DNA of 64,000 bases from positions 3,663 through 67,662 of the forward strand of contig JANQOZ010000020.1 in NCBI GenBank assembly GCA_028285525.1. Direction: 5' to 3'. The notes beneath the pieces were generated by a model. It had not been told where the DNA came from. It searched no databases and worked only from the letters and a program-made list of their open reading frames with translations. Shown piece by piece: positions 44,375 to 62,253 of this stretch (positions are counted from its first letter, which is position 1; every line of letters starts with the position of its first letter). The stretch comes from Lysobacterales bacterium (GTDB lineage: Bacteria; Pseudomonadota; Gammaproteobacteria; Xanthomonadales; SZUA-38). The position numbers and the translations under genes are program-made.

Positions 44375-44528
44375 CAGCGTATTTTACCCGGGTGAGTGCA
44401 TTTCGGAGGAGACCCGCCGGGCTGGCGCGCTCTTTCAAGGCGCCGGGACCGTTTGTTGCTCCACCCGTTCAGGACCCGCCCGTACTGGCGGTCGAGTGAC
44501 TTAGTGAGGTATTTTTGGTGTTCTTACA

Positions 44529-44656
44529 TAAAGAAAGGGCCCAAGTAGGAGTGCTGACCAAACTCCTTGCTTGAGCCCTTGAGCTACTGCCCCGATTACC
44601 GTGACCCGATCTGCCAATCCCAGATCATGGGCCGTGGTTGTTTCGTTAGCGAGTGC
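44529..44656 (-). ncRNA. candidate small RNA (two hairpins, terminator-like 3' end); ends approximate
   Basis: Hairpin 44598-44638, linker GGGGCAGUAGC, long hairpin 44535-44580 followed by U-rich tract; -10-like TACTCT and phased operator upstream. Confidence 0.5.
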
Positions 44657-44668
44657 AGGGTCAGAGTA

Positions 44669-44729
44669 CTAACATTTGTATTAAGAATAAGTTAAACGAA
44701 GCGTAACTGCTCGTTAACATCTGCATTAA
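44669..44729. promoter_or_regulatory. array of six NTAA (four TTAA) boxes at 11-12 bp period, OmpR-family-type binding array
   Basis: CTAA 44669, TTAA 44681, TTAA 44692, GTAA 44703, TTAA 44714, TTAA 44726. Confidence 0.55.
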
Positions 44730-44838
44730 TTCGGGGCTTTTCTCCTTTTCGGCTTTCCATTCACCCTGAGCCCTAACCTGTTTGTCGATTTTTTGTGAGG
44801 ACTTTGTCGAAACCACGTGACAAGGACATCTAGTCAGG

Positions 44839-44868
44839 TTAATATATTCGCATACTTGAATATATTAA
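44839..44868. promoter_or_regulatory. ArsR-type operator, perfect 11-bp inverted repeat
   Basis: TTAATATATTC-N8-GAATATATTAA ending 11 bp before the ArsR start. Confidence 0.75.
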
Positions 44869-44879
44869 GGTTTTAAGTC

Positions 44880-45239
44880 TTGCCCAGCCGCGCGATTGTT
44901 GCCAAAGAGCTATCCCAGGTTCTGAAGACCATCTCGCACCCCGATCGGGTGCGGATTATTGAAGAGCTGCGGGGCCAGGAAAAAGACGTCAACACCATCG
45001 CCGAGGCGCTGGAACTCACCGCCACGAGAATTTCCCAGCACCTGAGTCTTATGAAAGCCCACCGCATCGTCGACGAGCGGCGCGAAGGGCGGCACCACTA
45101 TTACCACCTGGTCCAGCCGGAAATCGCAGACTGGATCGTCAACGGTTTGGCCTTCGTCGAAGGCCGCATGTCGGCGGTATCCGCCGCAGAAATCAAATCC
45201 GCCCGCAAATTGTGGGGCGCTGTTCCCGTACAGAAATAA
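44880..45239 (+). CDS. ArsR/SmtB-family regulator
   Basis: LKTISHPDRVRII, ISQHLSLMK, ERREGR..YY. Confidence 0.88.
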   Translation: MPSRAIVAKELSQVLKTISHPDRVRIIEELRGQEKDVNTIAEALELTATRISQHLSLMKAHRIVDERREGRHHYYHLVQPEIADWIVNGLAFVEGRMSAVSAAEIKSARKLWGAVPVQK

Positions 45240-45276
45240 CGGTTAACCCAAAGAGAATTTAAGGTCGAAGATAATC

Positions 45277-45951
45277 ATGCCTAAGTTTGCAGCTGGCGTA
45301 GTCCGATTCCAGAGCGAAGTATTTCCCGAGAAACAAGCGCTGTTTGAACAGCTGGCGCAAGGCCAATCGCCGGAGGCGCTGTTCATCACCTGTTCCGATT
45401 CCCGGATCGAAACGGCGATGATTACGCAGACGGAGCCCGGCGAGCTGTTTATCTGCCGCAATGCCGGCAACATCGTGCCGCCCCATCGGAGTAACGGCGG
45501 CGGCATGACGGCTTCTATCGAGTTTGCCGTTGCCGCGCTGAAGGTCCCGCATATCGTGGTCTGCGGCCACACCGAATGTGGCGCGATGAAAGGTGCCATG
45601 CACCCTGAAGGGCTGGACTCGCTGCCGCAGGTCCGTGACTGGCTGTCCCACAGCCGCGCCGCGGTAGAGGTGGTTAATGCACTTGGCGCTGACCTGGACG
45701 ACGAGACCCGTATGAAAATGCTGCTCGAACAGAACGTCAAGCTGCAGCTGCAGCACCTGCGTACCCACCCGTCGGTTGCGGCCCGCCTCGCGAAAGGTGA
45801 CCTGACGCTGCACGGCTGGATCTACGACATCAAAACAGGTGGCGTAAGTGCCTTGAACGAGAGCAGCGATGAATTTGTTTCGGTCGACGAGCAGTACAGC
45901 GAGGCGATCGCGTCGATGATGGCTCACGATCACGCTGCCTGCCACGCCTGA
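45277..45951 (+). CDS. beta-class carbonic anhydrase
   Basis: GQSP, CSDSR, RNAGN, HTECGAM Zn ligands. Confidence 0.95.
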   Translation: MPKFAAGVVRFQSEVFPEKQALFEQLAQGQSPEALFITCSDSRIETAMITQTEPGELFICRNAGNIVPPHRSNGGGMTASIEFAVAALKVPHIVVCGHTECGAMKGAMHPEGLDSLPQVRDWLSHSRAAVEVVNALGADLDDETRMKMLLEQNVKLQLQHLRTHPSVAARLAKGDLTLHGWIYDIKTGGVSALNESSDEFVSVDEQYSEAIASMMAHDHAACHA

Positions 45952-45965
45952 GGAGTAGGAACCCA

Positions 45966-47651
45966 ATGACTACCAAAACACAATCATCCGGGCGCACACC
46001 CTGGTTTGACTTCAGCAACATGAGAGGCGACATCTTCGGCGGGATCACCGCCGGCATCGTCGCCCTGCCGCTGGCGCTCGCCTTTGGCGAAGCGTCGGGC
46101 GCCGGTCCTATCGCCGGCCTCTGGGGCGCAATTATCGTTGGCTTTTTTGCCTCCCTGTTCGGCGGCACAGGATCGAACGTGTCCGGGCCAACGGGACCGA
46201 TGGTCGTCGTCTTCGCCGGCGTATTTGCCTCCCTCTCCGGCAATCCAGCGCTGGTCTTCGCCGCGGTTGTACTGGCAGGCCTCCTGCAGATCGCCTTCGG
46301 CGTGATGCGCTTGGGTCAGTACATCCGACTGGTGCCCTACCCCGTGGTTTCGGGCTTCATGAGCGGCATCGGCTGCATCATCATTGCGCTGCAGCTGTCG
46401 AGGCTCTTTGGCCACGAGCCGGAAGGCGGGGGCACCGTGCCCGCGCTGATTGCGATTCCCGGCGCCGTGATGGACCCGAACATCAGCGCGCTGGTGATCG
46501 GCCTGGTCACGCTGGGAGTCATTTTCTTCTGGCCGAAGACGCTCAATAAGTTTATCCCCGGCGCGCTGGCCGCGCTGATCATCGGTACGCTGCTCAGCCT
46601 CGTGCTGAAGGGTGCTCCGATTCTGGGCGACATTCCGACCGGCCTGCCGTCATTCATCATCCCGTCGTTCACCCAGGACACCTTCCTCATCGTGCTGGAG
46701 GCAGCCTTCATTCTGGCCCTCCTGGGTGCCATCGACAGCCTGCTCACCTCGCTGGTGGCCGACAACATGACCCGGACCCGTCACAACTCCGATCTGGAAC
46801 TGGTCGGCCAAGGCGTGGGCAACACGATTGCCGGCCTGTTCGGCGCCATTCCCGGTGCTGGCGCGACCATGCGGACCGTGGTGAACATTCGGACCGGCGG
46901 TCAAACCCGGATTTCCGGCATGCTGCACTCGCTGATCCTGCTGGCCGTTGTGCTCAGCCTGTCGCCGCTGGCCTCCCAGATTCCGCACGCCGTGCTGGCC
47001 GGAATCCTGATCAAAGTCGGCTACGACATCGTTGACGTCAGCTACCTGAAACGCGCCCACCAGGGACCACGCTGGGATCTGGCGCTGATGGTGATGGTGC
47101 TCGGACTGACCGTGTTCGTCGACCTGATCACCGCCGTAGCGGTCGGTGTGATCCTCGCCGCACTGGCTTTCGTCAAGCGGATGGCCGACAGGCAGCTCGA
47201 GTCATTCAAGAGCACCACCGGCGACATGACCACCTCGGAGGAACAACAAATCCTGGATCAGGCCAAAGGCAAGATCACGCTGTTCGACTTCGGGGGCCCG
47301 CTGAGCTTCGGCGCGGCGGCCGATTTGGGACATACCGTCCGCGAACGCGTCCGCGAGCACTCGGCCGCCATCGTGCTGGACTTCTCGAGAGTGCCTTTCA
47401 TGGACGTCTCCGCGGCGAGAGCCGTCGAGACGATCGCCTGCGACGCCCGTGCCGCGCACAAGACGCTTTACGTCACCGGCATGAGCGATGAAGTGAAGCG
47501 GGTGCTGACCGGCCTCAACGCTGATCACTGCATCCCGGGCGACACCACCCACGCAACCCGCCTGGAGGCGCTGAAGGCAGCGCTGGCTGAAGTCTCGGGA
47601 GCCGCCGGCGGCGACCCCGACCTGAAGCTGGCCGCTGCCGGCCAGGCTTAA
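45966..47651 (+). CDS. SulP-family anion (probably bicarbonate) transporter with STAS domain
   Basis: ALPLALAFG, SGPTGPM, IDSLLTS, GAGATMRT, C-terminal STAS; cotranscribed with CA. Confidence 0.93.
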   Translation: MTTKTQSSGRTPWFDFSNMRGDIFGGITAGIVALPLALAFGEASGAGPIAGLWGAIIVGFFASLFGGTGSNVSGPTGPMVVVFAGVFASLSGNPALVFAAVVLAGLLQIAFGVMRLGQYIRLVPYPVVSGFMSGIGCIIIALQLSRLFGHEPEGGGTVPALIAIPGAVMDPNISALVIGLVTLGVIFFWPKTLNKFIPGALAALIIGTLLSLVLKGAPILGDIPTGLPSFIIPSFTQDTFLIVLEAAFILALLGAIDSLLTSLVADNMTRTRHNSDLELVGQGVGNTIAGLFGAIPGAGATMRTVVNIRTGGQTRISGMLHSLILLAVVLSLSPLASQIPHAVLAGILIKVGYDIVDVSYLKRAHQGPRWDLALMVMVLGLTVFVDLITAVAVGVILAALAFVKRMADRQLESFKSTTGDMTTSEEQQILDQAKGKITLFDFGGPLSFGAAADLGHTVRERVREHSAAIVLDFSRVPFMDVSAARAVETIACDARAAHKTLYVTGMSDEVKRVLTGLNADHCIPGDTTHATRLEALKAALAEVSGAAGGDPDLKLAAAGQA

Positions 47652-47819: not shown

Positions 47820-47893
47820 TGGAGCGGGTGATGGGAATCGAACCCACGTCATCAGCTTGGGAAGCTGAGGTTCTACCATTGAACTACACCCGC
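47820..47893 (-). tRNA. tRNA-Gly (CCC)
   Basis: GCGGGTG acceptor stem, anticodon loop TTCCCAA, GTTCGATTC T-arm, encoded CCA; 74 nt. Confidence 0.97.
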
Positions 47894-49348: not shown

Positions 49349-49578
49349 GGCGCGGGACCGGGCAGTCGAGGCTGTGAAACATACCGTCTCGCGACGTACG
49401 CCGCACGCCGCGGACCAAAAACAGCAACTTTCGCCAAATCGAAGGAAGCTAAGCCTCGGTAACGGCGAAAGAAGAACCGAGAAAATCTCCGCATCCGACC
49501 ATATCCGGACCGGACCACGGGCACGCCCGGATTTCGAGGTGCCGGGCCGGGTGATCTTCCGGACCGGCCTCGAAGCGG

Positions 49579-50880
49579 TCAGCCCTTAAGCTGAACCACG
49601 ACCAGGCACTGGTCGTCTGAGTTGTCGCGGCCGCGGCTGTGGTCGTCAACCGCCTCGCGAACCGCCTCGACAAGCTCCCGCGCATCCCCTTTAACGGCGC
49701 CGAGCGCCGCCTCGAGACGGGCCTCACCGAACTGCTCATTGCCTGCGCTCCGACACTCGGTGAGGCCGTCGGTATAGAGCACCGCCGCTTCGCCTGGCTC
49801 CAGCTGGGCCTCACCGCCGATGATCGCAACGTCCGGGATGATGCCTAGCGGCGGCCCACCGGCCGAATCGAGCCGCGCAACACGGCCGTTGCGTCGCAGC
49901 AGCAGCGCAGGACTGTGGCCGGCGTTGACGTACATGACCCGCCCCGTTTCCGGATAGATCCGCATGAAGAAGACGGTGACAAACGTCCCTCTCCCGAGAC
50001 TCTCGACAAACAGCCGGTTCACCTTCTCAACCACGTCGACGGTTGGGAGGTCCATGCCTCGAAAGATCATCATTGCGGTGCGCAGCATCGCCATCACCAC
50101 GGCGGCACCAGGCCCGTGACCAGCGACGTCGGCGATCACAAACCCTAATGATCCGTCGGAGAAAGTTCGAAAGTCGTAGTAGTCACCACCGGCATAGTCC
50201 GAAGGCCGATAGTGAACGGCCACGTCGAGCGCGGGATGCTGCGGAAGCTGATCCGGCAGGATGGCCTGCTGGGCTCCGGCAATCTCGTCGAGCTTCACCT
50301 CCAGACTGTCCCGCAGGTCGGAGACCTGGCGCGTCAGCTTGAGTTGATAAACGCTGCGCGACAGCATGTTCAGCACCGAAATGATGACCCGCAGCTGCAT
50401 CGGGTCCAGCGGGAGGCCAGGCTCCCGAAACAGGATCAGCCACTCGTTGATTTCTCCCTGCAGATAGACGGGAACGGCCAGCGCGTCCCGCGGACCGTCG
50501 ACCCAGTCTGCAAGTGTCGGGTCCTGAGCTGGATCGAGGTTCAAGCCAATCTTGGGCTGCCCGCCCGCGATGAGCGCACCGACCAGGCCGCCGTGCGTCA
50601 CGGGAACAGCATCCGACGGCTCATCCCAGCGACAGTTGGCGCGAATGCTCAAGGGAGAATCACCCGCCTTGGCAAGATCGATGCGGTCCATCACCCGGAA
50701 AGCGTCTGGCTGATCGGGCACAACCGCGAGATCGAGAATCTCGCTGACGCCGGCGATCTCGTGAAACCGTCGGCTGAACCCATAGACCAGCTCACCTTCG
50801 GTACGCGCCTGGCTCATGGCACGCTGCATATCGAGCACCACGCTCAGCGAAGGGGTGTCTTCCAGGGATCGGATGTGCAT
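49579..50880 (-). CDS. SpoIIE/RsbU-type PP2C phosphatase with GAF-like N-terminus
   Basis: GGDYYD, ADVAGHG, NAGH, YTDGLTE, DDQC. Confidence 0.9.
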   Translation of the reverse strand: MHIRSLEDTPSLSVVLDMQRAMSQARTEGELVYGFSRRFHEIAGVSEILDLAVVPDQPDAFRVMDRIDLAKAGDSPLSIRANCRWDEPSDAVPVTHGGLVGALIAGGQPKIGLNLDPAQDPTLADWVDGPRDALAVPVYLQGEINEWLILFREPGLPLDPMQLRVIISVLNMLSRSVYQLKLTRQVSDLRDSLEVKLDEIAGAQQAILPDQLPQHPALDVAVHYRPSDYAGGDYYDFRTFSDGSLGFVIADVAGHGPGAAVVMAMLRTAMMIFRGMDLPTVDVVEKVNRLFVESLGRGTFVTVFFMRIYPETGRVMYVNAGHSPALLLRRNGRVARLDSAGGPPLGIIPDVAIIGGEAQLEPGEAAVLYTDGLTECRSAGNEQFGEARLEAALGAVKGDARELVEAVREAVDDHSRGRDNSDDQCLVVVQLKG

Positions 50881-51045
50881 GGGCGGAACCTCAGGCGCGT
50901 CGCTTCACGTTAGCGCGCGCCGGCGGGACCTTCAATCCTTCGCCAAAACGGTGTCCATGGCATTCGAGCCGGGAGCCAGCATGTGGGTTAATCGAAGACT
51001 AAAAGCGGTAAGAAACTGCGTCAGGCTTACCGTTGACAACCGGAA

Positions 51046-51053
51046 TGTGAGGC
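51046..51053. repeat. 8-bp direct repeat TGTGAGGC, left copy
   Basis: Identical to 61337-61344; abuts the MFS stop codon. Confidence 0.45.
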
Positions 51054-52406
51054 CTAATGCTGAATAGCTTCTCCAGGCTCGCTGAAGGCATCGACTTCCG
51101 ACGTGGCCGAATGCCGCTGAAGCTTCCACAAGCACAGCATGGCGATGATGCAGGACCCGATCGAGAAACCTCGCAGCGCCGTCAGCACGCCGCCGTCATC
51201 GGGCTGCAGATCACTGAGGAATCCCACCAGCGTCGGGCCGAGTCCCAAGCCGACGATATTGATCATGAACACGTAAACCGCGGACACCCTGGCCCGGGTG
51301 ACCACCGGCGCCACTCGCATCACCGTGGCAGGCCCGGTACCCACAACGGTGCTCGACGCGAACTGAATCGCCCCGATAATGGCAAACAGCGCCCACGCCG
51401 TCTGCGCAAACAGCGAGATGATCACCAGCACCAGCGTAAGCGCTGCGCCAGACAAGAGCACTTTCTGATAGGCGGCTGAGACGCCGCGGCCTTGAAGCCA
51501 GTCTGCTGCCACTCCTCCAAACATAACCCCAGCCGGAGAAACCAGCAGCATCAGCAGCCCAAATCGGAACCCGATGTCCGGTAGCGCCCAGCCGTGCTCC
51601 CGGACCAGTATGGAAGGCATCCAGGTCATGTTGCCGTAGTTGACGGCTATCAGAAATGCATTCCCGACAAACAGCAGGCTGTAAATTTTCCACCTCAAGC
51701 GCAGCTCTGCGACGAGTCCCGAGGCGCGCTCCGGCCCTGCGGACTCGGCGGCCGGATCGAGCATTCCTCGTTGCGGTTCGCGAATCAGCAGCAGCAGAAC
51801 CAAGAACACGACTCCTGGCAAAGCCAACAGAATGAACGTGAGCTGCCAGGGCTCGAGCTGCGCGAGCATTGGCGTCGAAGTCAGGTCAACCCGCTCAGCA
51901 AACTCAAGGACCTTGCCGCCGGCCAGAAAGGCCAGCCCGCCGCCCAGCAGAGCACCCATCTGAAACAGGCTCAGCGCCGTGGCTAGCGATCGACGGGGCA
52001 CAATATCGGTCAACAGCGAATACCCAGCGGGCGCCAGCGCCGCCTCTCCAACACCGACGCCAACGCGGGCGCCAAGCAACGTCAGAAAACTACGCGCCAG
52101 CCCGCATAGTGCCGTCATAACGCTCCAGCAGGCGATGCCCCAGAAAATAATCCACTTGCGCGACCAGCGATCGATCAGCCAGGCGATCGGAATACCCATG
52201 GTGGCGTAGAACAGACCGAAGGCGACCCCGTGCAGCAGCCCAAGCTGAGTGTCACTGAGTCCGAGGTCAGCCTTGATCGGCTCGAACAGGAGCGACAGGG
52301 CGAAGCGGTCCACCAGAGAGAACGCCATGGCTGCCGACAGTGTGGCCACCACAAAAACGCGATAGCCGGTACCTGTGGATTCAGAGGGATCGGGTTCAGT
52401 CGACAT
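51054..52406 (-). CDS. MFS transporter (spinster-like)
   Basis: DRFALSLLFEPIKADLGLSDTQLGLL, RVGVGVGEA; alternative start 52421. Confidence 0.9.
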   Translation of the reverse strand: MSTEPDPSESTGTGYRVFVVATLSAAMAFSLVDRFALSLLFEPIKADLGLSDTQLGLLHGVAFGLFYATMGIPIAWLIDRWSRKWIIFWGIACWSVMTALCGLARSFLTLLGARVGVGVGEAALAPAGYSLLTDIVPRRSLATALSLFQMGALLGGGLAFLAGGKVLEFAERVDLTSTPMLAQLEPWQLTFILLALPGVVFLVLLLLIREPQRGMLDPAAESAGPERASGLVAELRLRWKIYSLLFVGNAFLIAVNYGNMTWMPSILVREHGWALPDIGFRFGLLMLLVSPAGVMFGGVAADWLQGRGVSAAYQKVLLSGAALTLVLVIISLFAQTAWALFAIIGAIQFASSTVVGTGPATVMRVAPVVTRARVSAVYVFMINIVGLGLGPTLVGFLSDLQPDDGGVLTALRGFSIGSCIIAMLCLWKLQRHSATSEVDAFSEPGEAIQH

Positions 52407-52495
52407 TACGACAGCCAGCATAGCCGCTGTAAGCGGCTGTCGCTAAGGCCTGGACGCCGAATTTGAACGCGAAACAACCGGCTCTGGCGGTGGGG

Positions 52496-54658
52496 TCAGT
52501 CAAGCCTTGCGGTGAACTCGATCCCGTAGGTTCTCGGAGCACCCCAGAGCACCTGGTCCGAGCCCTGAAACTGGCGGGCAAACTCCTTGTAGAGCTCGTC
52601 CGTGAGATTCCTGCCCCAGAGATAGACGCCGTACTGCCCGTTCCCAAACTCGTAGCCCATCCGCAGATCAAGGAGGGAATAGCCGTTCTCAACGTTGAAG
52701 GGACCGTTGTCGGGCTGCAGAAATGTTTCACCCTGATAGGAGACCTGAGGCGAAAAGCTGAATTCGCCGGCTCCTAATTCCCGGCGGTAGTCGATACCGA
52801 CGCTGGCAGTCCATTGCGGTGTTTTTTCCGTGGCGTTGCCCGTAAAATCAGCACCCGCCGCAGTTGCACCGGTGAAGTCGGTATATTCGCCGTCCAGGTA
52901 GCTCAACGCACCCGTGAACTGCCAGTTTTCGCCGGCCAGAACATTGAATTCAAGCTCCGCCCCGGAAATTTCGGATTCACCGGCGTTGCGCACAAACACC
53001 GTTGGCACCCCGTTCGCCGACTCAAACTGAGCCACTTGACGGTCTTTGTAGTCCGAGAAGAACACAGCGCCACTGATCCTTGCTATGCCGCCGATTTCTG
53101 CCTTCAGACCCAGCTCATAAGTCGTAACAAACTCGGGATCAAAGGTGATGTCTGCGGCAGTCAGAGGCGAGGGTGTCCCCAGCGGATCAACGTTGAACCC
53201 GCCAGACTTAAAGCCCCGCGAAACCGATCCATAGGCCGACAGGTCTTCGCTGAAAGTGTAGTTCAGCGCTGCCGTCCACGAAGGCTCCGTTGCGGAAATC
53301 TTCAGCCCGGGAATGTCTTTGTTGAACGGTGGCACGATAGCGCTGGTCTGGACGTAAGACCCTTCCTTAGTCTCGTCGGTGATCCGAAGACCGGTGGTGA
53401 GCGCCAGGTTGTCGGTCAGCTGGAAATCCACATTGCCGAAGAGCGCCAGCGCCTCCGTGTCCACGGGTCCGTCGGTAAAGAACAGAGGATTACCTTGCGC
53501 AAAGATCCTGCGCGAAGCGTCAGCGTCCTGGCGATAGTAGAACAGGCCAATCACGTAGTCGATCTGGCCGTCGTCCGTCGAGGCGAGCCGAACTTCCTGG
53601 GTGAACTGAGCCGCGTTGTCGGTAAAAGGACCGGAACGGAAAATGTCTACCGGCGTTTGGTCGATGTCGCTGAAAACGGTGATCTCAACGTCGCGCCACG
53701 CGGTGATGGACGTCAGCTCGTGTCCGGAACTGAAGGCATAATTGACGCTGAGGTCCAAACCGACCATGTCACGCTCGGTGGTATTCGGTTGGTCGGTGTT
53801 GACGAGAAATCGGTTTTCGTTGAAAAACGCTCCCCCGAAGGCAGCCGGTGAGCCGAGCTGATTTAAGATCGTATCCTGATCGTCTCGGGTAATATCAGCA
53901 CCGAAATTGATTTCCAGGTTGGCGTTCGGCGTATAGCGCAGCTGGCCCCGCGCAGATCGGCGCTCCTCGCTCTGGAGCTCCGAGCCATCGAAGAGATTGT
54001 CGAGGTAACCCTCCCGATCCCAGGTGGCAACGGTGACTTTGCCCGCAAGATTTTCCGACAGCCCGCCACTGACCGAACCTCGGAAACGGACCGCCCCATA
54101 GTTGCCGAAAGACAGGCTACCGTTGGCGCGAAACTCATCAGTCGGCTTTTTTGTCGTGATGTTGATGGCGCCTCCGGTGGTGTTTTTTCCAAAAAGTGTG
54201 CCTTGCGGCCCGCGCAGCACCTCAAGCTGGGCGATGTCGGCGAGGTCGATGTTGTAGGCGGATGTACGCCCGGCGTAAACGCCGTCGATATACATCCCTA
54301 CGCCGCTCTCTAGACCGATATTGCGAGCATCGCCCCCTACCCCGCGGATCGTTATTTCTGTCTGCAAGGCGCTGCGGTCCTGATAGTGAAGGCTGGGGAC
54401 CACGTTTTTGAGATCTTTCAGGCTGACAGCGGTAAGCCGTTCCAGCTGTTCCTCACTGAAGATGCTCATGGCAATCGGTACGTCTTGAAGCGTTTCGGCG
54501 CGCTTCCTGGCGGTAACCACCACCTCTTCCAGCACACCCTGAGCCTGGGCCGGGACTGAAAGCGAAAGAGCCACCGCAACTGCCAGTGACAATGCAGCCG
54601 CTCGCCCCGTCGCTTGCTGGGGTCTGGTTTCGCTGGAGCCTACGGTGCTGCCTGACAT
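52496..54658 (-). CDS. TonB-dependent receptor
   Basis: Signal peptide, LEEVVVTARKR TonB box, EVLRGPQGTLFG, GFKSGG, NLTD...PRTYG; GGAGG RBS. Confidence 0.94.
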   Translation of the reverse strand: MSGSTVGSSETRPQQATGRAAALSLAVAVALSLSVPAQAQGVLEEVVVTARKRAETLQDVPIAMSIFSEEQLERLTAVSLKDLKNVVPSLHYQDRSALQTEITIRGVGGDARNIGLESGVGMYIDGVYAGRTSAYNIDLADIAQLEVLRGPQGTLFGKNTTGGAINITTKKPTDEFRANGSLSFGNYGAVRFRGSVSGGLSENLAGKVTVATWDREGYLDNLFDGSELQSEERRSARGQLRYTPNANLEINFGADITRDDQDTILNQLGSPAAFGGAFFNENRFLVNTDQPNTTERDMVGLDLSVNYAFSSGHELTSITAWRDVEITVFSDIDQTPVDIFRSGPFTDNAAQFTQEVRLASTDDGQIDYVIGLFYYRQDADASRRIFAQGNPLFFTDGPVDTEALALFGNVDFQLTDNLALTTGLRITDETKEGSYVQTSAIVPPFNKDIPGLKISATEPSWTAALNYTFSEDLSAYGSVSRGFKSGGFNVDPLGTPSPLTAADITFDPEFVTTYELGLKAEIGGIARISGAVFFSDYKDRQVAQFESANGVPTVFVRNAGESEISGAELEFNVLAGENWQFTGALSYLDGEYTDFTGATAAGADFTGNATEKTPQWTASVGIDYRRELGAGEFSFSPQVSYQGETFLQPDNGPFNVENGYSLLDLRMGYEFGNGQYGVYLWGRNLTDELYKEFARQFQGSDQVLWGAPRTYGIEFTARLD

Positions 54659-54732
54659 GCCTGCGCCTCCCGATGTGCTGAACGTTCGGTTACGGTACGC
54701 ACTGGCCCAGACAGGAATCCAATGAGTTGTTC

Positions 54733-54748
54733 TTATCAGCTCAAATAA
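54733..54748. promoter_or_regulatory. LysR-type box TTAT-N8-ATAA upstream of TBDR
   Basis: Same motif at 55717 and 61227, similar distance to start codons. Confidence 0.6.
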
Positions 54749-54775
54749 GGAATTCTTGGGCGCACCCGGGCGCCA

Positions 54776-55711
54776 TCAAACGTGACAGAATTCCTGCGGG
54801 CAACTGGCGGCAAACTCCTTCGCCGAGCAACGCGCAAGATCCACTAGCCTTTCGACCATCGGGTCACCCGCGGTGGTTCGCATACATGCCGTTAAATCGA
54901 TAGTTGGCAGTGATTGAGCCACCGGCAAAATTCCCACCTCACCACGGGCGATCTCATCGGCCATGACAAACGGCGGGATCGCCATCACTCCGAGGCCGCT
55001 ACGAACAAGCTGGCATGCGGTCGCCAGCGAATAGGAGCAGTTCAGCCCTACCCGATCAGGGGACGCAGGGACGTTCCTGATGTCATGCGAGGTGAAATAG
55101 TCTCTGATCAGCTCGAAGCCGGACGTGCCCTCGCGATTCATGATCACCGGCAGACTCGCCAGATCGACGATATCCAGGGGCATCTCGCAGTCGAAGTGGT
55201 TGGGCGACGCCAGCCACTTCATCGGAAACGAGCAGATGGGTATGTTTTCAACGTGGGGTTCGTTGATGGGGCCCCAGACAAACACCAGGTCGAGCTCATT
55301 CCGGCACAAAAGGTCCACGAGCGCTGGCGACGTTTCCGTCGTGATGTCCAGCGTTGCGCCGGGCTCTTCGTCTCGAATCGACGCAACGAAGGCGGGAAGC
55401 CACGAAAGGGTGACAAATTCGATAATGCCGACTCGCGTTACGGCGTTCTCGGCGGCAACGGACACGAGTTCACGGTGCATCTCCCCCGATAGCTCGACAA
55501 TCTTTTCGGCAAAGGGAAGAAGGTGCCGTCCGGCTGCGGTCAGCTCAAACTGCTTGGCGCCCCGCACATAGAGTTTTCGCCCAAAAAGATCTTCCAGGGT
55601 GGAGATTCGCTGAGACACACCCGGCTGCGTGGTGTGGAGCTTCTCGGCCGCAGCGTTGAAGTTCTTGAGACGGGACAGCCAAACAAACGTCTCGAGGAAA
55701 CGAATATTCAT
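54776..55711 (-). CDS. LysR-family regulator
   Basis: MNIRFLETFVW...AAEKLHTTQPGVSQRI. Confidence 0.92.
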   Translation of the reverse strand: MNIRFLETFVWLSRLKNFNAAAEKLHTTQPGVSQRISTLEDLFGRKLYVRGAKQFELTAAGRHLLPFAEKIVELSGEMHRELVSVAAENAVTRVGIIEFVTLSWLPAFVASIRDEEPGATLDITTETSPALVDLLCRNELDLVFVWGPINEPHVENIPICSFPMKWLASPNHFDCEMPLDIVDLASLPVIMNREGTSGFELIRDYFTSHDIRNVPASPDRVGLNCSYSLATACQLVRSGLGVMAIPPFVMADEIARGEVGILPVAQSLPTIDLTACMRTTAGDPMVERLVDLARCSAKEFAASCPQEFCHV

Positions 55712-55716
55712 TTTAT

Positions 55717-55732
55717 TTATGTACGCCCATCA
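55717..55732. promoter_or_regulatory. LysR-type box TTAT-N8-ATCA between lysR and rraA-like gene
   Basis: Followed on + strand by TTGCCG-N17-TATGCT sigma70-like promoter. Confidence 0.55.
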
Positions 55733-55809
55733 GGAATGCCGTTTGCCGAGCCCGAATGACAATCCTATGCTGGCTCCGAACAAAAATGCCGACGGACGGA
55801 GCAGCAGCC

Positions 55810-56508
55810 ATGCCTATGTTACCCCAACGACAGGTCTATCAGGTTGAACCGATGCCCGCGCAGATTTCCGATAAACAGCGCAGCGCGCTGCTGGCGCTGG
55901 ACACGCCGACCATCGGGCATCATCTCGAGAGCGGATTTATGGATCCCGGAATCACCCAACAGATGCCCGGCACCAAGATCGCCGGCACGGCAATCACCGT
56001 GCGGGTCACGCTGCCGGATTCCGTCATGGCCCACTACGCCCTCAAATTTGCCCGACCGGGGGACGTGCTCGTCATCGACCGCGGCCAGGATCAGCGGACC
56101 GCCTGCTGGGGCGCAGCCACTGCTCATGCAGCCGCAGCCGTTGGGCTGGCCGGCCTGATTCTTGACGGCGCGGCGACCGACATTCCGGATGCGGAAAGGC
56201 TCGGCCTGCCGATCTGGTGCCGGGGCCTGAGTCCGGTGACCACAAAGTATCGCGGGCTAGGCGGCGAGATGAACGTGCCGGTGTCCTGCGGCGGCGTGGC
56301 GGTGAATCCCGGTGACGCTGTCTTTGCTGACGATAACGGCATTGTTGTCATACCCCCGCAGATTCTCGATGAGACCATCGAAGCAGGCGAAGCGTGGCAC
56401 GCGGCGGAACAGAACTTTCTGGAACGGCTAAAACGGGAGCCCGACCTTTGCTACCCGGATGTGACGGGTGCGTCAGAAATTGTCGAGAGCCGGCTACTCG
56501 GGCGGTAG
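55810..56508 (+). CDS. RraA/HMG-aldolase family protein
   Basis: AGTAITV, PGDVLVID, ACWG, DGAATD, NVPVSCGGVAVNPGDAVFADDNG; GGAG RBS before ATG 55810. Confidence 0.88.
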   Translation: MPMLPQRQVYQVEPMPAQISDKQRSALLALDTPTIGHHLESGFMDPGITQQMPGTKIAGTAITVRVTLPDSVMAHYALKFARPGDVLVIDRGQDQRTACWGAATAHAAAAVGLAGLILDGAATDIPDAERLGLPIWCRGLSPVTTKYRGLGGEMNVPVSCGGVAVNPGDAVFADDNGIVVIPPQILDETIEAGEAWHAAEQNFLERLKREPDLCYPDVTGASEIVESRLLGR

Positions 56509-57393
56509 TGTCTCAATCGCCGTATCGTCCCGGCTTCCCCACTGCGCCCACGACCCATCGTAGACCGCCGCAGAGCCCGCCCCGGCCTGCTCTGCCGCGA
56601 GCGCCAGCAGACAGGCTGAGATGCCGCTGCCGCAGGTCATCACCAAAGGCCTGCCGAGATCCACGCCAGCGGCGGCGAAGCGCGCACGCAGCGCCTCGCC
56701 CGCGAGCAGCGTTTCCCCGCTGTCGTCGAGAAGATCACTGTAAGGCAGGTTTCTCGCTCCCGGCATGTGGCCACTCCGCAGGCCAGGTCGAGGCTCTGGT
56801 TGGGTGCCTGCAAAACGACCCGCTGCTCGCGCATCGACAATTTGCGGTAGTCCGTCGCGAATCGCAGAGCGGATCTGCGAGAGCGAGTAGATCCGTTGGG
56901 GGTCTGGCGGCTTGGCAACCCAGTCTCCCGGTGATGCATTTCCACCTGCAGGGGCCTCTGAGGACTGAACGGCGCCACCCGCCGCCAGCCAGTGCGGCAG
57001 GCCGCCGTTGAGAATGGCCACACCGGCGTGACCGAAGAGATGGAGCATCCACCACGCCCGCGGTGAGGAAAACACGCCGACGCTATCGTAGACCACAACG
57101 CGGTCCGATCGATTAACGCCGGCCGCTTGAAGCGCCCGCGTAAAATCAGCCGCCGAGGGAACCATGTGCGGCAGATCAGACGAGTCATCGCTTAGCCCGT
57201 CTATGTCGAAGAAGACCGCGCCTGGTATATGGCGAGCAGCGTATTCTGCCTGCGCATCGCGGTTGCTGGTCGGCAGGTGCCACGACGCGTCGAAAATGAA
57301 AAGGTCGTCGGCACCGAGGTTCTGCTGCAGCCACTCAACGGACACAACAGACGACATCCCGTCTGTGGGCGCCGACTTCAAGGAGATGACCAT
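56494..57393 (-). CDS. sseA: 3-mercaptopyruvate sulfurtransferase (rhodanese)
   Basis: DASWHLP, HIPGAVFFDID, DARAAGRF.G..PEPR, CGSGISA active loop, YDGSW; alternative start 57357. Confidence 0.9.
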   Translation of the reverse strand: MVISLKSAPTDGMSSVVSVEWLQQNLGADDLFIFDASWHLPTSNRDAQAEYAARHIPGAVFFDIDGLSDDSSDLPHMVPSAADFTRALQAAGVNRSDRVVVYDSVGVFSSPRAWWMLHLFGHAGVAILNGGLPHWLAAGGAVQSSEAPAGGNASPGDWVAKPPDPQRIYSLSQIRSAIRDGLPQIVDARAAGRFAGTQPEPRPGLRSGHMPGARNLPYSDLLDDSGETLLAGEALRARFAAAGVDLGRPLVMTCGSGISACLLALAAEQAGAGSAAVYDGSWAQWGSRDDTAIETLPPE

Positions 57394-59093
57394 GTGGCGT
57401 CCGCCTTGTCTCGTCCGTAATGCTCGCGAGCGAACTCCAGCGTGGTTTTCTCTTCGAGGATATCGTCTCGTATCGCCTCGTCCCTTCGATCCTCGCAGGG
57501 GCCGTAACCCGCACCGCCCGGAGTCTCCAGCCGGATCGATGTACCTTTTTGGACTACTTTTCCGGGCTGGTTCGCCTTGAGGATTTCCTCTTCCGCAGTG
57601 CCTGGATTGACAATGATCCGGGCATTGGACCCATCCTTTCCACCCATCAGCCCCGTGGGGTGGATCACCGTTTTTTCCGAGTTAGCGTAAAAAAAAGTTC
57701 CCTCATCGAGCACACGGATTTCTCTGGCGATACCGAGTCCTCCGCGTTGTCTCCCCGCCCCGCAGCTGTCGGGAATCAAGCAATACTCCTCGACCAGCAG
57801 CGGGTATTCATTCTCCAGCGCTTCGGCAGGCAGGTTGGATGAGTTGGTGATATGGACGTGGGTCCCATCAGCGCCGTCAAGATCACACATGGACCCGGAG
57901 CCACCTCCAATGGTCTCGACGTAGACGTAGGTTCCTGGGCGTCGACGGGATTGTCCGGACACTACCAGTGCCGGCATGGCATCGTTCCCTGATGCCATTT
58001 GGCGGTCTGACGGCAGCAGTTCGTTAAATGCGCCGATGATCGCGCCGGAGAAAGGCTGTGCGGTACACGAGCGCATGCCTACGGCCCCTGGGAACTCGGG
58101 CTTCGCCAGGCTGCCGTCGGGGGCTTTGATCGTGACCGCCGCAGCCATTCCGTCATTAGGCAGCAGCTCCGGATCGAGCATGGTCTTGACGCAGTAGTAG
58201 ACCGTGGCATTCAGCGCCGCTTTTGGCATGTTGTAGGCGCCGCGCGCCTGCGGACCGGTACCCTCAAAGTCGACCGTCAGGTCGCTGCCGCTGACCGTCA
58301 CTGTCGCTTGGATTCGGACCGGGTCTCCGCCGAACCCGTCGTCGTCGAGCCATGTGGCAAAGGTGCTGGAGCCATCATCCAGAGCCGCAATCCGAGCTCG
58401 AAGACGCCGCTCCGTATAGGCGAGGAGATCGTCGACTGATCGCTCCACTTCCTCGATGCTGTGGGCCGAAACAAGGTCCTGCACCAGCCGCCGACCACGA
58501 TCGTTGGCCGCGATCTGGACTTTGAGATCAAACGCACGATCCTCGGGTTCCCGGCTGTTGGACGTTACAAAAGAAAGGACGTCTTCATCCAGCGTGCCGG
58601 CGCGCATGACCCGGACCAACGGAATCCGAAGACCCTCGTCGAAGATCGTTTGTGCCGTGGGCGACACCGAGCCCGGTGTCGATCCACCGACGTCCGAATG
58701 GTGGCCGAGGTTGGTGGCAAAAAAGCGCAGGCGACCACCGCAGAAGATGGGCGTGACGATGGTGATGTCTGGGGAATGGGTCCCGCCGGCGAGGTAGGCG
58801 TCGTTGCACATAAACACATCGCCGTCCCGAATGTCATCCAGCGAATATTTGGCCAGGATGGTCTCAACCCCTCCCTCCAGCGCGCCGAGATGCATGGGAA
58901 TATGGGACGCTTGGGAAATCAGCCGACCCCGACGGTCGAACAGCGCCACCGAACAGTCCTGACGCTCCTTGATATTGGGCGAAAACGAGCCCCGAATAAG
59001 CGTTATGCCCATTTCTTCAGTGATGGTCAGCAGGCGATTGGAGAATACCTCCATCGCTATCGGGTCGAACCCGGAGGGAGTGCCTTCAGGCAT
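57378..59093 (-). CDS. hydantoinase B/5-oxoprolinase subunit
   Basis: SPNIKERQDCS, HIPMHLG, GGTHSPD, HHSDVGG, ETIGGGSG, ETPGGAGYG. Confidence 0.92.
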   Translation of the reverse strand: MPEGTPSGFDPIAMEVFSNRLLTITEEMGITLIRGSFSPNIKERQDCSVALFDRRGRLISQASHIPMHLGALEGGVETILAKYSLDDIRDGDVFMCNDAYLAGGTHSPDITIVTPIFCGGRLRFFATNLGHHSDVGGSTPGSVSPTAQTIFDEGLRIPLVRVMRAGTLDEDVLSFVTSNSREPEDRAFDLKVQIAANDRGRRLVQDLVSAHSIEEVERSVDDLLAYTERRLRARIAALDDGSSTFATWLDDDGFGGDPVRIQATVTVSGSDLTVDFEGTGPQARGAYNMPKAALNATVYYCVKTMLDPELLPNDGMAAAVTIKAPDGSLAKPEFPGAVGMRSCTAQPFSGAIIGAFNELLPSDRQMASGNDAMPALVVSGQSRRRPGTYVYVETIGGGSGSMCDLDGADGTHVHITNSSNLPAEALENEYPLLVEEYCLIPDSCGAGRQRGGLGIAREIRVLDEGTFFYANSEKTVIHPTGLMGGKDGSNARIIVNPGTAEEEILKANQPGKVVQKGTSIRLETPGGAGYGPCEDRRDEAIRDDILEEKTTLEFAREHYGRDKADATWSSP

Positions 59094-61155
59094 TTTCAAG
59101 AGCCTCCTCGTGTGGGGCTGATCGAGTGATTATCAGGTTACCGAATTCATCAACAATCACCTGCTGGCTGGGATGAATTACGGTAGTCGAGCTCATTTCC
59201 TCGACGATAGCGGGCCCCTGGATTTCCATACCTGCCGGCAGCCTTTCGCGGCGCAATACGGGGGTCTGACGCCAACCGATCTCCCGGCCAAAAAACGCGT
59301 TTCGCTCCCCGGTCTTTGGGTCCTCGCCACCAACTCCTTCTAGACGGGAGTGGGCCTTTTCAATCCGGCCGACGGCTCGAACCCGGCAGTTGACGATCTC
59401 GACAGCCCGACCCTCGATATCGTAACCATACTCCCGTTTGTGTCGATCTTTGAATTCGGCGACGAAACCATCGACCGACAGTTTGGCGAGATCGCGAACG
59501 ACCACCGCTAATTCGTAGTTCTGGCCGTCATAGCGAGCGTCGATCATGGTCTCGATTCGGCGCTCCGAGTCCGGGACCAACTCTCTGGTGAGCCATGCCT
59601 CTGCCTTATCGTGCATACCTCGGAGAACAGCAATAACTTCTCGCCAGATGTCAGGGGTCGCGAGCATCAGTTCGCTGCGGACAAAGTCCATGGTGATATC
59701 GGACAGCAAAATGCCTCTGGCGCACAGGGTTCCGGGCTCACGGGGCACGATGATGGTATTGATGCCGGCTTCTCGAGCCAGGTCAGCGGCATGCAGTGGA
59801 CCGGCTCCACCGTAGGCAATCAGGGCAAACTCACGAATGTCGTGGCCCTTTTCGGTGGATACCGCATGAATTGCCCGATTCATATTGGCGGCAGCGATGC
59901 GCAATATCCCGTACGCGGCGTCTTCGAGATCGATACCCAGAGGACCGGCTACCTTATCCTGGATTACGGCCCTGGCGCCTGCCGCATTAATCAAGAGCCT
60001 GCCATCGAGCAGCGAATGCTGATCCAGCCGTCCGAGGACAATATTGGCGTCGGTGATCGTTGGCGCAGTGCCGCCTCGGTCGTAGGCTACCGGCCCGGGA
60101 ACGGCACCGGCGCTTTTCGGCCCAACCTTCAGGGATCCCGCGTCGTCCACTGCGGCGATGCTGCCGCCGCCAGCGCCGATGACGTGGATATCGACCATCG
60201 GTGTTCTGACCGGAAAACCCGCTACCGTCCGATCGGAGGCAAACAGCGGTTGGCCGTCGACAATAATCGAGACGTCGGTTGACGTGCCGCCGACGTCAAA
60301 CGTGACCAGGTTTCGGAAGCCAGCCGTCCGTCCCACCTCGGCGGCGCCGATCACGCCGGCCGCAGGGCCGGAGACACAGGTCCGTACCGGCATCTCGCGG
60401 ACCGTAGCGACGGACATCAGCCCACCATTGCTATGGACCGTATCGAGGTTGGCGCTGATTCCGAGACCCTTGACACGAGTCAGCAGCTTTTCCAGGTAGC
60501 GCTGCATTCGCGGCCCCATGTAGGCATTCAGCACCGTCGTCGAAAGCCGCTCAAATTCTCGAAACTCCGGCAGCACCTCGCTCGAAAGACTCACGTAAAC
60601 GCCAGGCAGCTCTTCGGCCAGGATTTCGCGGGCCCGGCGTTCGTGAGAGGGATTGCGATAGCTGTGCAAAAAACAAATTACGACCGCTTCGATATCGCTC
60701 TCAACGAGTCTCCGGGCAGCGGCCCGCACAGCGTTCTCGTCCAGGGGCCGGTGCACCGAGCCGTCAGCAAGGATGCGTTCATCAATTTCGAGCCGCAGAT
60801 GGCGCGGTATCAGTGGCTCGGGTCGGCGTACGCGATAGTTATAGAGGTGCGGCCGGGTCTGACGGCCGATCTCAAGCACGTCCCTGAAACCGCGCGTTGT
60901 CATCAGCCCGGTCCGCGCCCCTTTGCGCTCGATCGCCATATTGGTCGCGACTGTTGTGCCATGGCCTAAATGGGAAACCTGATCCGGTGAGATCTCGAGG
61001 TTTTCAATCAGACTGGCCAGCCCAGACTCAATCGCGGCCGAGGGGTCGTCAGGCGTTGAGGAGACCTTGAAGTAGTCAACGACGCCGCTTTCGTCATTGA
61101 TGATCGTAAAGTCGGTGAACGTTCCACCGACATCGAATCCAATTCGATAGCCCAA
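59086..61155 (-). CDS. hydantoinase A/5-oxoprolinase (ATP-binding) subunit
   Basis: DVGGTFTD, HGTTVATN, SGPAAG, DVGGTSTD, GAGGGS, GGAGPLH. Confidence 0.93.
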   Translation of the reverse strand: MGYRIGFDVGGTFTDFTIINDESGVVDYFKVSSTPDDPSAAIESGLASLIENLEISPDQVSHLGHGTTVATNMAIERKGARTGLMTTRGFRDVLEIGRQTRPHLYNYRVRRPEPLIPRHLRLEIDERILADGSVHRPLDENAVRAAARRLVESDIEAVVICFLHSYRNPSHERRAREILAEELPGVYVSLSSEVLPEFREFERLSTTVLNAYMGPRMQRYLEKLLTRVKGLGISANLDTVHSNGGLMSVATVREMPVRTCVSGPAAGVIGAAEVGRTAGFRNLVTFDVGGTSTDVSIIVDGQPLFASDRTVAGFPVRTPMVDIHVIGAGGGSIAAVDDAGSLKVGPKSAGAVPGPVAYDRGGTAPTITDANIVLGRLDQHSLLDGRLLINAAGARAVIQDKVAGPLGIDLEDAAYGILRIAAANMNRAIHAVSTEKGHDIREFALIAYGGAGPLHAADLAREAGINTIIVPREPGTLCARGILLSDITMDFVRSELMLATPDIWREVIAVLRGMHDKAEAWLTRELVPDSERRIETMIDARYDGQNYELAVVVRDLAKLSVDGFVAEFKDRHKREYGYDIEGRAVEIVNCRVRAVGRIEKAHSRLEGVGGEDPKTGERNAFFGREIGWRQTPVLRRERLPAGMEIQGPAIVEEMSSTTVIHPSQQVIVDEFGNLIITRSAPHEEALENA

Positions 61156-61226
61156 CGGTCCGGCCTCGCTGAAGAAGGTGTTCTGAGCCTACCGGTGCGG
61201 GTTGCACCCCGACAAATTGGATATCG

Positions 61227-61242
61227 TTATGACTGCTTATAA
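61227..61242. promoter_or_regulatory. LysR-type box TTAT-N8-ATAA upstream of hydantoinase A
   Basis: Followed on - strand by TTGTCG-N18-TAGGCT. Confidence 0.6.
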
Positions 61243-61336
61243 AGATTTTCGAACCCCGCCAGCAGCGGGGCTGACCGGCAGCAGCCCGCCACATCGAGCC
61301 AGCGGAAGCCGATCTCGAGTGCAGCGGCCATGGCGT

Positions 61337-61344
61337 TGTGAGGC
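61337..61344. repeat. 8-bp direct repeat TGTGAGGC, right copy
   Basis: Identical to 51046-51053; abuts the amn stop codon. Confidence 0.45.
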
Positions 61345-62130
61345 TCAGTACTGAAAGTGTTTGATCTTCTCGCCGGTTTTGCCGATGTCCGTCATCGACT
61401 CGATGCCGAGGTTCAGATGCATGTCCACCCAGTTCTGGGTCACCGCACGATCGGATTCCTCGGTCTTGACGCCGTCGGGCGTCGTCGGCACGTCCGACAC
61501 CAGCAGCAGGGCGCCGCGGGAGATTTCGTTCTTATGGCCGACAATAAATAACGTAGCCGTCTCCATATCGATGCCGATGCAGGTCATCTGCCGCAGCCGC
61601 TCGTGGAAGCCGTCGTCATGCTCCCAGACTCGCCGGTTGGTCGTGTAGATCACGCCGGTCCGGTAGTCCAGTCCGTGGGCCCGAAGTTTTTCCGATACAA
61701 ACTTGTGGAGCTTGAAGGACGGCAGCGCCGGCACCATCGGGTCGAGGTAGTCGTCGCTCGTGCCCTCCCCCCGGATGGCGGCAATCGGCAGGATGAAATG
61801 GCCGATCTCGGTCGATTTCTTGAGGCCGCCGCATTTGCCCAGAAACAGCACACCCTTGGGATGCACCGCCGTCAGCAGATCCATCATGGTGGCGGCGTTA
61901 GGCGAACCCATCCCGAAGTTGATGATGGTCAGGCCGTCACTGTTGGTCGCGGCCTGCATCGGACGCCCCTCTCCATAGAGCTCGCAGCTGAATCGCTCGC
62001 AGAAGGTGGTGACGTAGTTGGAGAAGTTGGTCAGCAGCACCCAGTCGCCAAACTTTTCCAGCGGCATGGAGGTATAGCGAGGGAGCCAATTGCGGGTGAT
62101 GTCGAGTTTATTGATCACAGGTTGTTCCAA
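61345..62130 (-). CDS. amn: AMP nucleosidase (short form)
   Basis: NWLPRYT, LLTNF, GMGSPNA, LGKCGGL, IRGEGTS, TTNRRVWE, DMETAT. Confidence 0.88.
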   Translation of the reverse strand: MEQPVINKLDITRNWLPRYTSMPLEKFGDWVLLTNFSNYVTTFCERFSCELYGEGRPMQAATNSDGLTIINFGMGSPNAATMMDLLTAVHPKGVLFLGKCGGLKKSTEIGHFILPIAAIRGEGTSDDYLDPMVPALPSFKLHKFVSEKLRAHGLDYRTGVIYTTNRRVWEHDDGFHERLRQMTCIGIDMETATLFIVGHKNEISRGALLLVSDVPTTPDGVKTEESDRAVTQNWVDMHLNLGIESMTDIGKTGEKIKHFQY

Positions 62131-62253
62131 AATTCTGGTGTATTGTAACGCAGCGCTTTCAGCCTGCGGCAGCAGCGTTACAATAGCGAGTCACGCAGCG
62201 CTGCCGGCGGCAACCCCGGATCGGCAAGCCCCGATAAGAAGCACCACCGACAC

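Follow-up and report, generated by a model that had tools for sequence, protein, structure and literature searches.

A 64,000-nt stretch of a Lysobacterales bacterium genome (assembly GCA_028285525.1, contig JANQOZ010000020.1; hereafter the window, in whose coordinates all positions are given) carries an inserted block of seven genes. They are hyuA and hyuB, for the two subunits of an enzyme of the hydantoinase/oxoprolinase family (HyuAB), sseA, for a 3-mercaptopyruvate sulfurtransferase (MST)-type protein, an rraA-like gene, and genes for a LysR-type regulator, a TonB-dependent outer-membrane receptor and a transporter of the major facilitator superfamily (MFS). Our reading, to which we give a probability of roughly 0.55, is that the block was acquired horizontally and serves, under LysR control, the catabolism of a small cyclic amide that is anionic (carboxylated). 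An earlier note, made from the letters of the window, had named the same seven genes; searches of the open reading frames (ORFs) with Pfam and NCBIfam models found all of them at the places and in the families that it gave (Table 1).

Table 1. The inserted block and its genes in window coordinates.
Feature	Position	Strand	Evidence
Inserted block (genomic islet) with the whole module	50955-61344		blastn against same-genus genome G006
MFS transporter	51054-52421	-	Pfam MFS_1, 134 bits
TonB-dependent outer-membrane receptor, 720 aa	52496-54658	-	Pfam Plug and TonB_dep_Rec_b-barrel
LysR-type regulator	54776-55711	-	Pfam HTH_1 and LysR_substrate
rraA-like, 232 aa	55810-56508 (ORF from 55756)	+	Pfam RraA-like, 127 bits
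sseA, MST-type tandem rhodanese, 299 aa	56494-57393	-	NF008557, 257.9 bits (cut-off 250)
hyuB, metal-containing hydrolytic subunit, 573 aa	57378-59099	-	Pfam Hydantoinase_B, 571.5 bits
hyuA, ATP-binding subunit of the hydantoinase/oxoprolinase family, 689 aa	59086-61155	-	Pfam Hydant_A_N, Hydantoinase_A and Hydant_A_C

The block has clean borders. In a blastn comparison with G006, homology was found at 49512-50954 and 61345-62187, and the intervening 10,390 bp replace 33 bp of the G006 sequence, where about 110 bp separate the AMP nucleosidase gene (98% identical) from the SpoIIE gene (88%). The window has the same neighbors on the outside of the block, with AMP nucleosidase (AMN) and TrmB genes on one side and a gene for a SpoIIE-type phosphatase on the other. 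A HyuB orthologue (E<=1e-100) was present in none of 40 relatives (6 of the same genus, 8 further ones of the same family and 26 of the same order). The GC content at third codon positions (GC3) of the seven block genes ranges from 0.66 to 0.73 with a mean of 0.693, compared with a mean of 0.770 (SD 0.047) among the window's 37 remaining long ORFs and with 0.817, 0.809 and 0.749 for the flanking AMN, TrmB and SpoIIE genes, respectively; the excess of A/T-ending codons, which had earlier been judged by eye, is thus a measured one. The block therefore shows two marks of a genomic island, a conserved site that is empty in a close relative and a deviant composition. No integrase or transposase was found at the borders, all seven block ORFs belonging to catabolic, transport or regulator families, and inspection of the block ends by eye for long direct repeats revealed only a 10-nt imperfect repeat. 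The single tRNA gene of the window, tRNA-Gly(CCC) at 47820-47893, lies 3 kb from the islet end and not at the border. Within the genus, the neighbor of the AMP nucleosidase gene at this site differs: it is SpoIIE in G006 and a SulP gene in G002 and G005.

Inside the block, hyuA overlaps hyuB by 14 nt and hyuB overlaps sseA by 16 nt, whereas the rraA-like gene points away from lysR and towards sseA, with the stops of the latter two overlapping by 15 nt. These coordinates agree with the hyuA-hyuB-sseA operon and the divergent rraA-lysR pair described before. Three transcription units were inferred from gene order and overlaps only, because a scan for promoters and terminators yielded no more sites than were found in shuffled sequence. 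The start of the RraA-like protein was set at Met19 of the ORF that begins at 55756 (MPMLPQR), as judged from orthologues and the database record. The receptor has both the plug (PF07715, 68.7 bits) and the 22-strand barrel (PF00593, 138.6 bits) of its family; all of the substrate-specific NCBIfam models stayed under their cut-offs (e.g. TIGR01783, 171.8 against 223.5 bits). The MFS transporter is nearest to the anion:cation symporter (ACS; D-galactonate transporter) subfamily, with 97.9 bits for TIGR00893, below the cut-off of 395.

As far as motifs and alignments can tell, HyuAB looks like a competent hydrolase. HyuA contains all three domains of the superfamily (203.8, 314.7 and 37.8 bits for Hydant_A_N, Hydantoinase_A and Hydant_A_C), and its motifs DVGGTFTD, DVGGT and GAVPGP match the ATP-binding motifs DxGGTxTD, DVGGT and GxxPGP that are given for the caprolactamase subunit CapA in PMC8453981. 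Residues D48, H108, D111 and H133 of HyuB align with the metal tetrad D41/H99/D102/H124 of CapB, mutants of which were inactive according to the same source. With the ATP motifs and the tetrad intact, the earlier assignment to the HyuA/B-type enzymes stands. The closest solved relatives are N-methylhydantoinase 7hk5, a fused protein, and caprolactamase, with 511 and 448 bits (6yra_A) for HyuA and 257 and 172 bits for HyuB. In two-subunit architecture, Pfam domains, ATP motifs and Asp-His-Asp-His metal site HyuAB resembles these enzymes and 5-oxoprolinase; it differs in scoring below the caprolactamase equivalogs NF050156 and NF050157 (602.6 and 252.5 bits, cut-offs 1000), in forming a clade of its own, in carrying Glu45 where CapB has the hydrophobic pocket residue Leu38, and in being accompanied by an RraA-fold gene and anion importers, a link not found in the literature searched. 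Glu45 stands between Lys44 and Arg46, which may be a small hint at a polar, charged substrate. The genome of the window contains four further HyuA-like loci, 33-39% identical (C25, C123, C83 and C68, or L002-L005), three of which lie beside a HyuB-like gene.

That HyuAB might instead be an ATP-dependent ketone carboxylase of the acetone/acetophenone type, and not a ring-opening hydrolase, is extremely improbable. The structure related to the TRAP binding protein (see below) is taken to contain a beta-keto acid, which would suit such an activity. Carboxylases and hydrolases also belong to the same superfamily and, as PMC8453981 states, have the metal tetrad in common. However, the carboxylases scored lower with both subunits (321 and 265 bits for HyuA; 119 and 61 bits for HyuB, the last value being that of acetone carboxylase), and the ApcC, ApcA and ApcD models, which have cut-offs of 1250-1500, gave 338, 232 and 124 bits. 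HyuB is also shorter, with 573 aa, than the 776-aa alpha subunit of acetone carboxylase, the block contains no other small ORF that matches a family, and hence no gene for a gamma subunit, and the anion importers fit a carboxylated substrate but not a neutral ketone.

To follow the module across lineages, genome and metagenome contigs were scanned with HyuB, 80 loci were taken from each, and tblastn was then run with the window proteins. In the HyuB tree the window protein belongs to a 17-row clade with a support of 100, which collapses to 10 distinct lineages. The full gene order of the window, namely hyuA-hyuB-sseA, convergent rraA and lysR-receptor-MFS, recurs in L087/88, L090 and L095/L008 (HyuB 70-79%, RraA 71-83% and receptor 62-70% identical). 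In L094 (HyuB 75%) the start of sseA follows hyuB, and then the contig ends. L089 (HyuB 78%) has hyuB, a spacer of 112 bp, convergent rraA and lysR, without sseA. L098 (HyuB 66%) also has no sseA, the gap between hyuB and rraA being 3 bp, and keeps lysR-receptor-MFS. L096/97 (HyuB 68%) has receptor-MFS-hyuA-hyuB and lacks rraA, lysR and sseA within 17.7-21.7 kb of sequence. Two Comamonadaceae lineages (the L006 group and L007/L092; HyuB 61-63%), whose layout was determined by Pfam searches of L006 and L007, carry LysR, the tripartite ATP-independent periplasmic (TRAP) transporter genes DctQ-DctM-DctP, rraA, hyuA and hyuB in one direction and no sseA; in L006, L007 and L009, rraA follows the TRAP genes and directly precedes hyuA.

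The core of the module is HyuAB and the RraA-like gene. Nine lineages allow a judgement on the latter, and 8 of them have it. The importers are exchanged, with a TonB receptor and an MFS transporter in some lineages and a TRAP transporter in others. Receptor orthologues of 60-70% identity travel with the module in L087/88, L090, L095, L096/97 and L098, MFS orthologues (48-65%) follow the receptor in these loci, and LysR orthologues (50-71%) occupy the same place in L087/88, L089, L090, L095/L008 and L098. Both rraA and sseA are missing from the next HyuB clades, which are 50-56% identical and whose neighborhoods showed no common theme. Since the block order recurs in unrelated metagenome contigs, the block is a self-contained, mobile module, which, together with the clean insertion relative to G006, upholds the earlier description of a self-contained and horizontally acquired catabolic unit.

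Further genes adjoin the module in single lineages. Amidohydro_3, PQQ-dehydrogenase and second receptor genes beside it in L090, L096/97 and L098 were rejected as module parts, their proteins being only 39-48% alike. A TetR gene, a TonB receptor gene (67% identical) and an Amidohydro_3 gene flank the module at L090:554-7407 and stand alone on contig C108 of the window's genome (G000, at about 79669-84597); this group was therefore treated as a separate unit. Upstream of and opposite to the LysR-TRAP-rraA-hyuAB genes of a Limnohabitans metagenome-assembled genome (MAG), at L006:2202-2636, lies a gamma-glutamyl cyclotransferase-like gene (GGACT), whose products would be 5-oxoproline-type lactams; it was not seen at that place in L007.

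Sulfur is not a conserved theme of the module, although the variants that carry sseA may have a sulfur-containing substrate. The earlier note had proposed that a sulfur-containing cyclic amide is taken up and broken down to pyruvate and sulfane sulfur. In such a route HyuAB would open the amide (resembling 2-oxothiazolidine-4-carboxylate, or a thiohydantoin or thiolactam) to cysteine or a mercapto-acid, which would pass through 3-mercaptopyruvate to desulfuration by SseA and on to pyruvate through an RraA-type aldolase. We consider this route unlikely, although several features agree with it. The opening of 2-oxothiazolidine-4-carboxylate by 5-oxoprolinase is established biochemistry, sseA overlaps hyuB in one operon, and SseA is of the true MST type: it has two Pfam Rhodanese stretches, a score above the NF008557 cut-off, 232 bits with human MST (3olh) and the loop CGSGISA, CG[ST]G being the mark of MST as distinct from thiosulfate rhodanese. 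The CGSG loop is kept in all four full-length module copies, and sseA occupies the same position in five lineages (the window, L087/88, L090, L094 and L095/L008), a constancy that argues for some functional tie there. On the other hand, sseA is cleanly absent from the other 5 of the 10 lineages, among them L098 and L089, the latter with a HyuB 78% identical to that of the window; conservation of sseA beside orthologous hyuAB, on which the note had staked the proposal, thus fails in half of the lineages. The four full-length SseA copies are 48-55% identical to one another whatever the distance between their modules and do not track the module tree, whereas HyuB in the same loci is 68-78% identical. 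Database matches to the window SseA lie at 57-59% and then level off near 50%, with free-standing alphaproteobacterial MSTs among them, so that the module copies are no closer to one another than to these. In two SseA trees (FastTree with 125 rows and IQ-TREE with 36 hand-picked rows) the module copies did not form one clade; the approximately unbiased (AU) test did not reject one (p 0.07), so that these results neither establish nor refute a single origin. Furthermore, the module contains no C-S lyase and no aminotransferase to make 3-mercaptopyruvate, its RraA-like protein lacks the catalytic arginine of the aldolases (see below), and the window's genome has two further MST-like genes. In our reading sseA is an accessory gene that recurs, in about half of the lineages, but that the module can do without. 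The module copy shares tandem rhodanese domains, the CGSG loop and a score above the NCBIfam equivalog cut-off with SseA and human MPST, and differs from them in ending a hyuAB operon, an arrangement confined to half of the module lineages.

The second point on which the earlier note has to be corrected is the RraA-like protein, which it had taken for a pyruvate aldolase or oxaloacetate decarboxylase. The closest solved relative is the HMG/CHA aldolase/oxaloacetate decarboxylase 3NOJ (88.8 bits). In PMC5065237, Arg-123 of this enzyme is described as essential and as stabilizing the pyruvate enolate, R123A as inactive and R123K as reduced 181-fold in kcat, and Asp-124 and Glu-199 as binding the metal. 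The window protein retains Asp-124 but has Thr in place of Arg-123 and Ala in place of Asp-102; it can be aligned to 3NOJ up to residue 194, short of Glu-199. All 8 orthologues have T, S or N in place of Arg-123, and in the best 120 of 741 homologues (E<=1e-20) the position is occupied by N in 68, S in 20, T in 16, H in 15 and C in 1. Asp-124 and a new Arg in the motif TTK[YH]R are invariant in the same 120 sequences. The protein also missed both aldolase/decarboxylase equivalogs (NF006731, 105.7 against 179 bits; TIGR02798, 99.8 against 304.5) and the model of the RNase E regulator RraA (NF006875, 72.3 against 136 bits), being 232 aa long compared with about 161 aa. Judged by these residues and scores, it falls outside the canonical aldolases and decarboxylases: it has its Pfam family and the metal ligand Asp-124 in common with 3NOJ, LigK and GalC, but it lacks Arg-123, has Ala at the position of Asp-102 and possesses a different invariant Arg, which may or may not stand in for the lost one. 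Its invariant polar set looks catalytic. The two other RraA-like genes of the window's genome keep the VRD motif. Among 400 genomes at class level and 401 at order level, no RraA-like orthologue above 41% identity was found besides the source genomes, and a search of the Protein Atlas gave only 'RraA family' clusters.

More distant relatives, 38-45% identical, were inspected in 10 loci, of which 7 are plasmid loci picked for diversity from 35 records. At the position of Arg-123 they have T (8 proteins) or C (2), and the arginine of the KYR motif is absent. In 5 of the 10 loci, all on plasmids (L240-L243 and L246: NZ_CP139722, NZ_CP015737, NZ_CP132960, NZ_CP121115 and NZ_CP031468; Nitratireductor, Shinella, Aminobacter, Roseinatronobacter and Paraburkholderia caffeinilytica), the rraA-like gene directly follows a gene annotated as 'carbon-nitrogen hydrolase family protein', with a TRAP, ATP-binding cassette (ABC) or MFS transporter and LysR nearby. 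In the genome loci L193 and L195 it adjoins an amidase-signature gene, and in Comamonas an amidase gene belongs to the cluster in which it lies. The Sulfitobacter locus has an adjacent RidA gene, and L194 (5.7 kb) has neither type of hydrolase; in most of the 10 loci LysR and a transporter of the anion or ABC type are encoded as well. Such operons on alpha- and betaproteobacterial plasmids, e.g. those of Nitratireductor, Shinella and P. caffeinilytica, which are uncharacterised, resemble the module in combining an RraA-fold protein without Arg-123, a C-N hydrolase, LysR and an organic-anion or ABC importer. They differ from it in having a 267-aa nitrilase-superfamily hydrolase instead of the ATP-dependent HyuAB, and in their RraA-like proteins, which reach only 39-45% identity, the TTK[YH]R arginine is absent. 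At L195 (G683:C1:3970000-3989900) the Arg-less gene lies inside a dense N-heterocycle cluster with an AtzD/TrzD-type ring-opening amidohydrolase, two amidases, two Amidohydro_1 proteins, an M20 peptidase, an HbpS-like protein and an ABC importer.

It thus seems that the Arg-less RraA subfamily accompanies amide hydrolysis in general, and since its partners are unrelated amide hydrolases, we argue for a metabolic rather than a physical tie. A physical tie would make the RraA-fold protein a non-enzyme, a third regulatory or stabilizing subunit of HyuAB, in the way that RraA binds RNase E and DEAD-box helicases. The loss of Arg-123 would suit such a role, as would the position of rraA directly before hyuA, in one operon, in L006, L007 and L009, and small additional subunits do occur in the carboxylases related to HyuAB (PMC8453981). 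We nevertheless regard it as very improbable: the polar residues that are invariant in the best 120 homologues (DS..HY, TTK[YH]R and Asp-124) look like an active site, Arg-less relatives that accompany two unrelated hydrolase families are a poor fit to one binding partner, rraA is separate and convergent in the window, and L096/97 does without it.

A metabolic tie can be given a more definite form, in which the substrate is the amide of an alpha-keto acid in its lactam form, i.e. 2-hydroxy-5-oxoproline (cyclic alpha-ketoglutaramate) or an N-substituted derivative such as deaminated glutathione. HyuAB would then be an ATP-driven alternative to amidases of the Nit1/Nit2 type, the RraA-fold protein would act at the alpha-keto/carbinolamine end, and a cysteine leaving group would explain sseA. 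The four C-N hydrolases tested from loci of RraA-like relatives all matched deaminated-glutathione amidase models best, but with scores of 175-195 bits, far under the model cut-off of 500. The TRAP binding protein of the Comamonadaceae versions, discussed below, resembles PDB entry 4P8B, whose presumed ligand, (S)-2-acetolactate, is a tertiary alpha-hydroxy acid similar in shape to 2-hydroxy-5-oxoproline. Published sources report that RraA-fold enzymes bind alpha-keto acids through Mg (PMC5065237), that 2-acetolactate is among the new TRAP ligands (PMC5812351) and that 2-hydroxy-5-oxoproline is a natural metabolite of plant leaves (PMC9806585). Against this form it also counts that the RraA step is not obviously needed once HyuAB has opened the lactam, and that a TonB-dependent receptor would be unusual for so small a metabolite; on balance it appears distinctly unlikely. 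Only tentatively, and with little weight, do we extend it to the whole subfamily, as a new reaction of the Arg-123-less RraA-fold enzyme, always accompanied by a C-N hydrolase suited to the substrate (Nit1-like, amidase-signature, or HyuAB for stable rings), with alpha-keto-acid amides or lactams as the shared substrates and a sulfurtransferase where the leaving group is derived from cysteine.

The carriers that replace one another are a TRAP system and an ACS-like MFS protein, both of which fit organic anions, and the substrate is therefore likely to be one. In the Limnohabitans-type module the TRAP binding protein matched 4P8B with 340.6 bits, and its model superimposed on that structure with Z 40.3 and an rmsd (root mean square deviation) of 1.8 A over 308 residues at 48% identity. 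The ligand of 4P8B we take to be (S)-2-acetolactate. This likeness of a modelled protein suggests a small alpha-substituted carboxylate, and no more. Proteins resembling 4P8B are present in 25 of 401 sampled genomes of the order to which the Limnohabitans MAG belongs, and no hyuAB or rraA was found within 1.5 kb of the 25 loci besides those of L006 itself.

We infer the following course of events from these parts. The TonB-dependent receptor would bring the substrate across the outer membrane and the anion-type MFS transporter across the inner one, the TRAP transporter taking over uptake in the Comamonadaceae versions. As N-methylhydantoinase, 5-oxoprolinase and caprolactamase do, HyuAB would then open the ring, HyuA activating the amide with ATP and HyuB hydrolyzing it at the metal site. 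The RraA-fold protein may act on the amide or on the ring-opened product, probably an alpha-keto or alpha-hydroxy acid, and SseA would provide optional sulfur handling outside the conserved core.

Several observations weigh against this reading. The receptor gave its best partial matches with siderophore-receptor models, which fits a larger ligand, and none of the module enzymes had an equivalog-level match that points to a substrate. The ligand of 4P8B is a presumed one, and the wider neighborhoods of 4P8B-like genes are heterogeneous (in 5 of 6 loci, L238 being left out; 55 of 67 ORFs). The pairing of HyuAB with rraA is not absolute, L096/97 having neither rraA nor lysR; the loss of Arg-123 makes the status of the RraA-fold protein as an enzyme uncertain; and the sample of 10 loci of its relatives is small, with 7 of them hand-picked. 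As for shared regulation of the units, a search for a common operator or LysR box across the three intergenic regions returned nothing convincing, and the promoter and terminator scan, at chance level, likewise lends no support. In sum, the earlier interpretation holds in part. The module is real, mobile and uncharacterised, but what is conserved in it is the combination of HyuAB, an Arg-less RraA-fold protein and anion import, and not sulfur.

The statement of the earlier note that the gene set did not correspond to a described pathway agrees with the literature searched, in which we found none. Among the papers listed by these searches, none linked RraA, or the RraA family under its old names, with hydantoinase or RraA with oxoprolinase, none placed an MST in an oxoprolinase or hydantoinase cluster, and none connected ketoglutaramate or 2-hydroxy-5-oxoproline with RraA.

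Elsewhere in the window, GC falls to 0.52-0.54 across 44000-45500. An ArsR-like ORF at 44880-45239 is followed by an ORF at 45277-45951 with beta-carbonic-anhydrase motifs, recognized by eye, and by a SulP/BicA-like transporter at 45966-47651 (NF050096, 544.5 bits, below the cut-off of 880).

Few catalysts open chemically stable lactams and hydantoins; the HyuA/HyuB enzymes are among them, and substrates are known for only a handful of these. The clade described here brings importers and a regulator of its own, together with a conserved RraA-fold partner in which the catalytic arginine has been moved or lost. The sulfur pathway was an attractive reading but a weakly founded one, and it is corrected here. 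If the substrate were 5-oxoproline or a similarly common compound, the block would be an ordinary accessory catabolic islet. The identity of the substrate would otherwise yield a new ATP-dependent ring-opening activity, would give the first function for a widespread and unstudied RraA subfamily (the 741 homologues at E<=1e-20), and would test whether this subfamily is a general companion of amide hydrolases.

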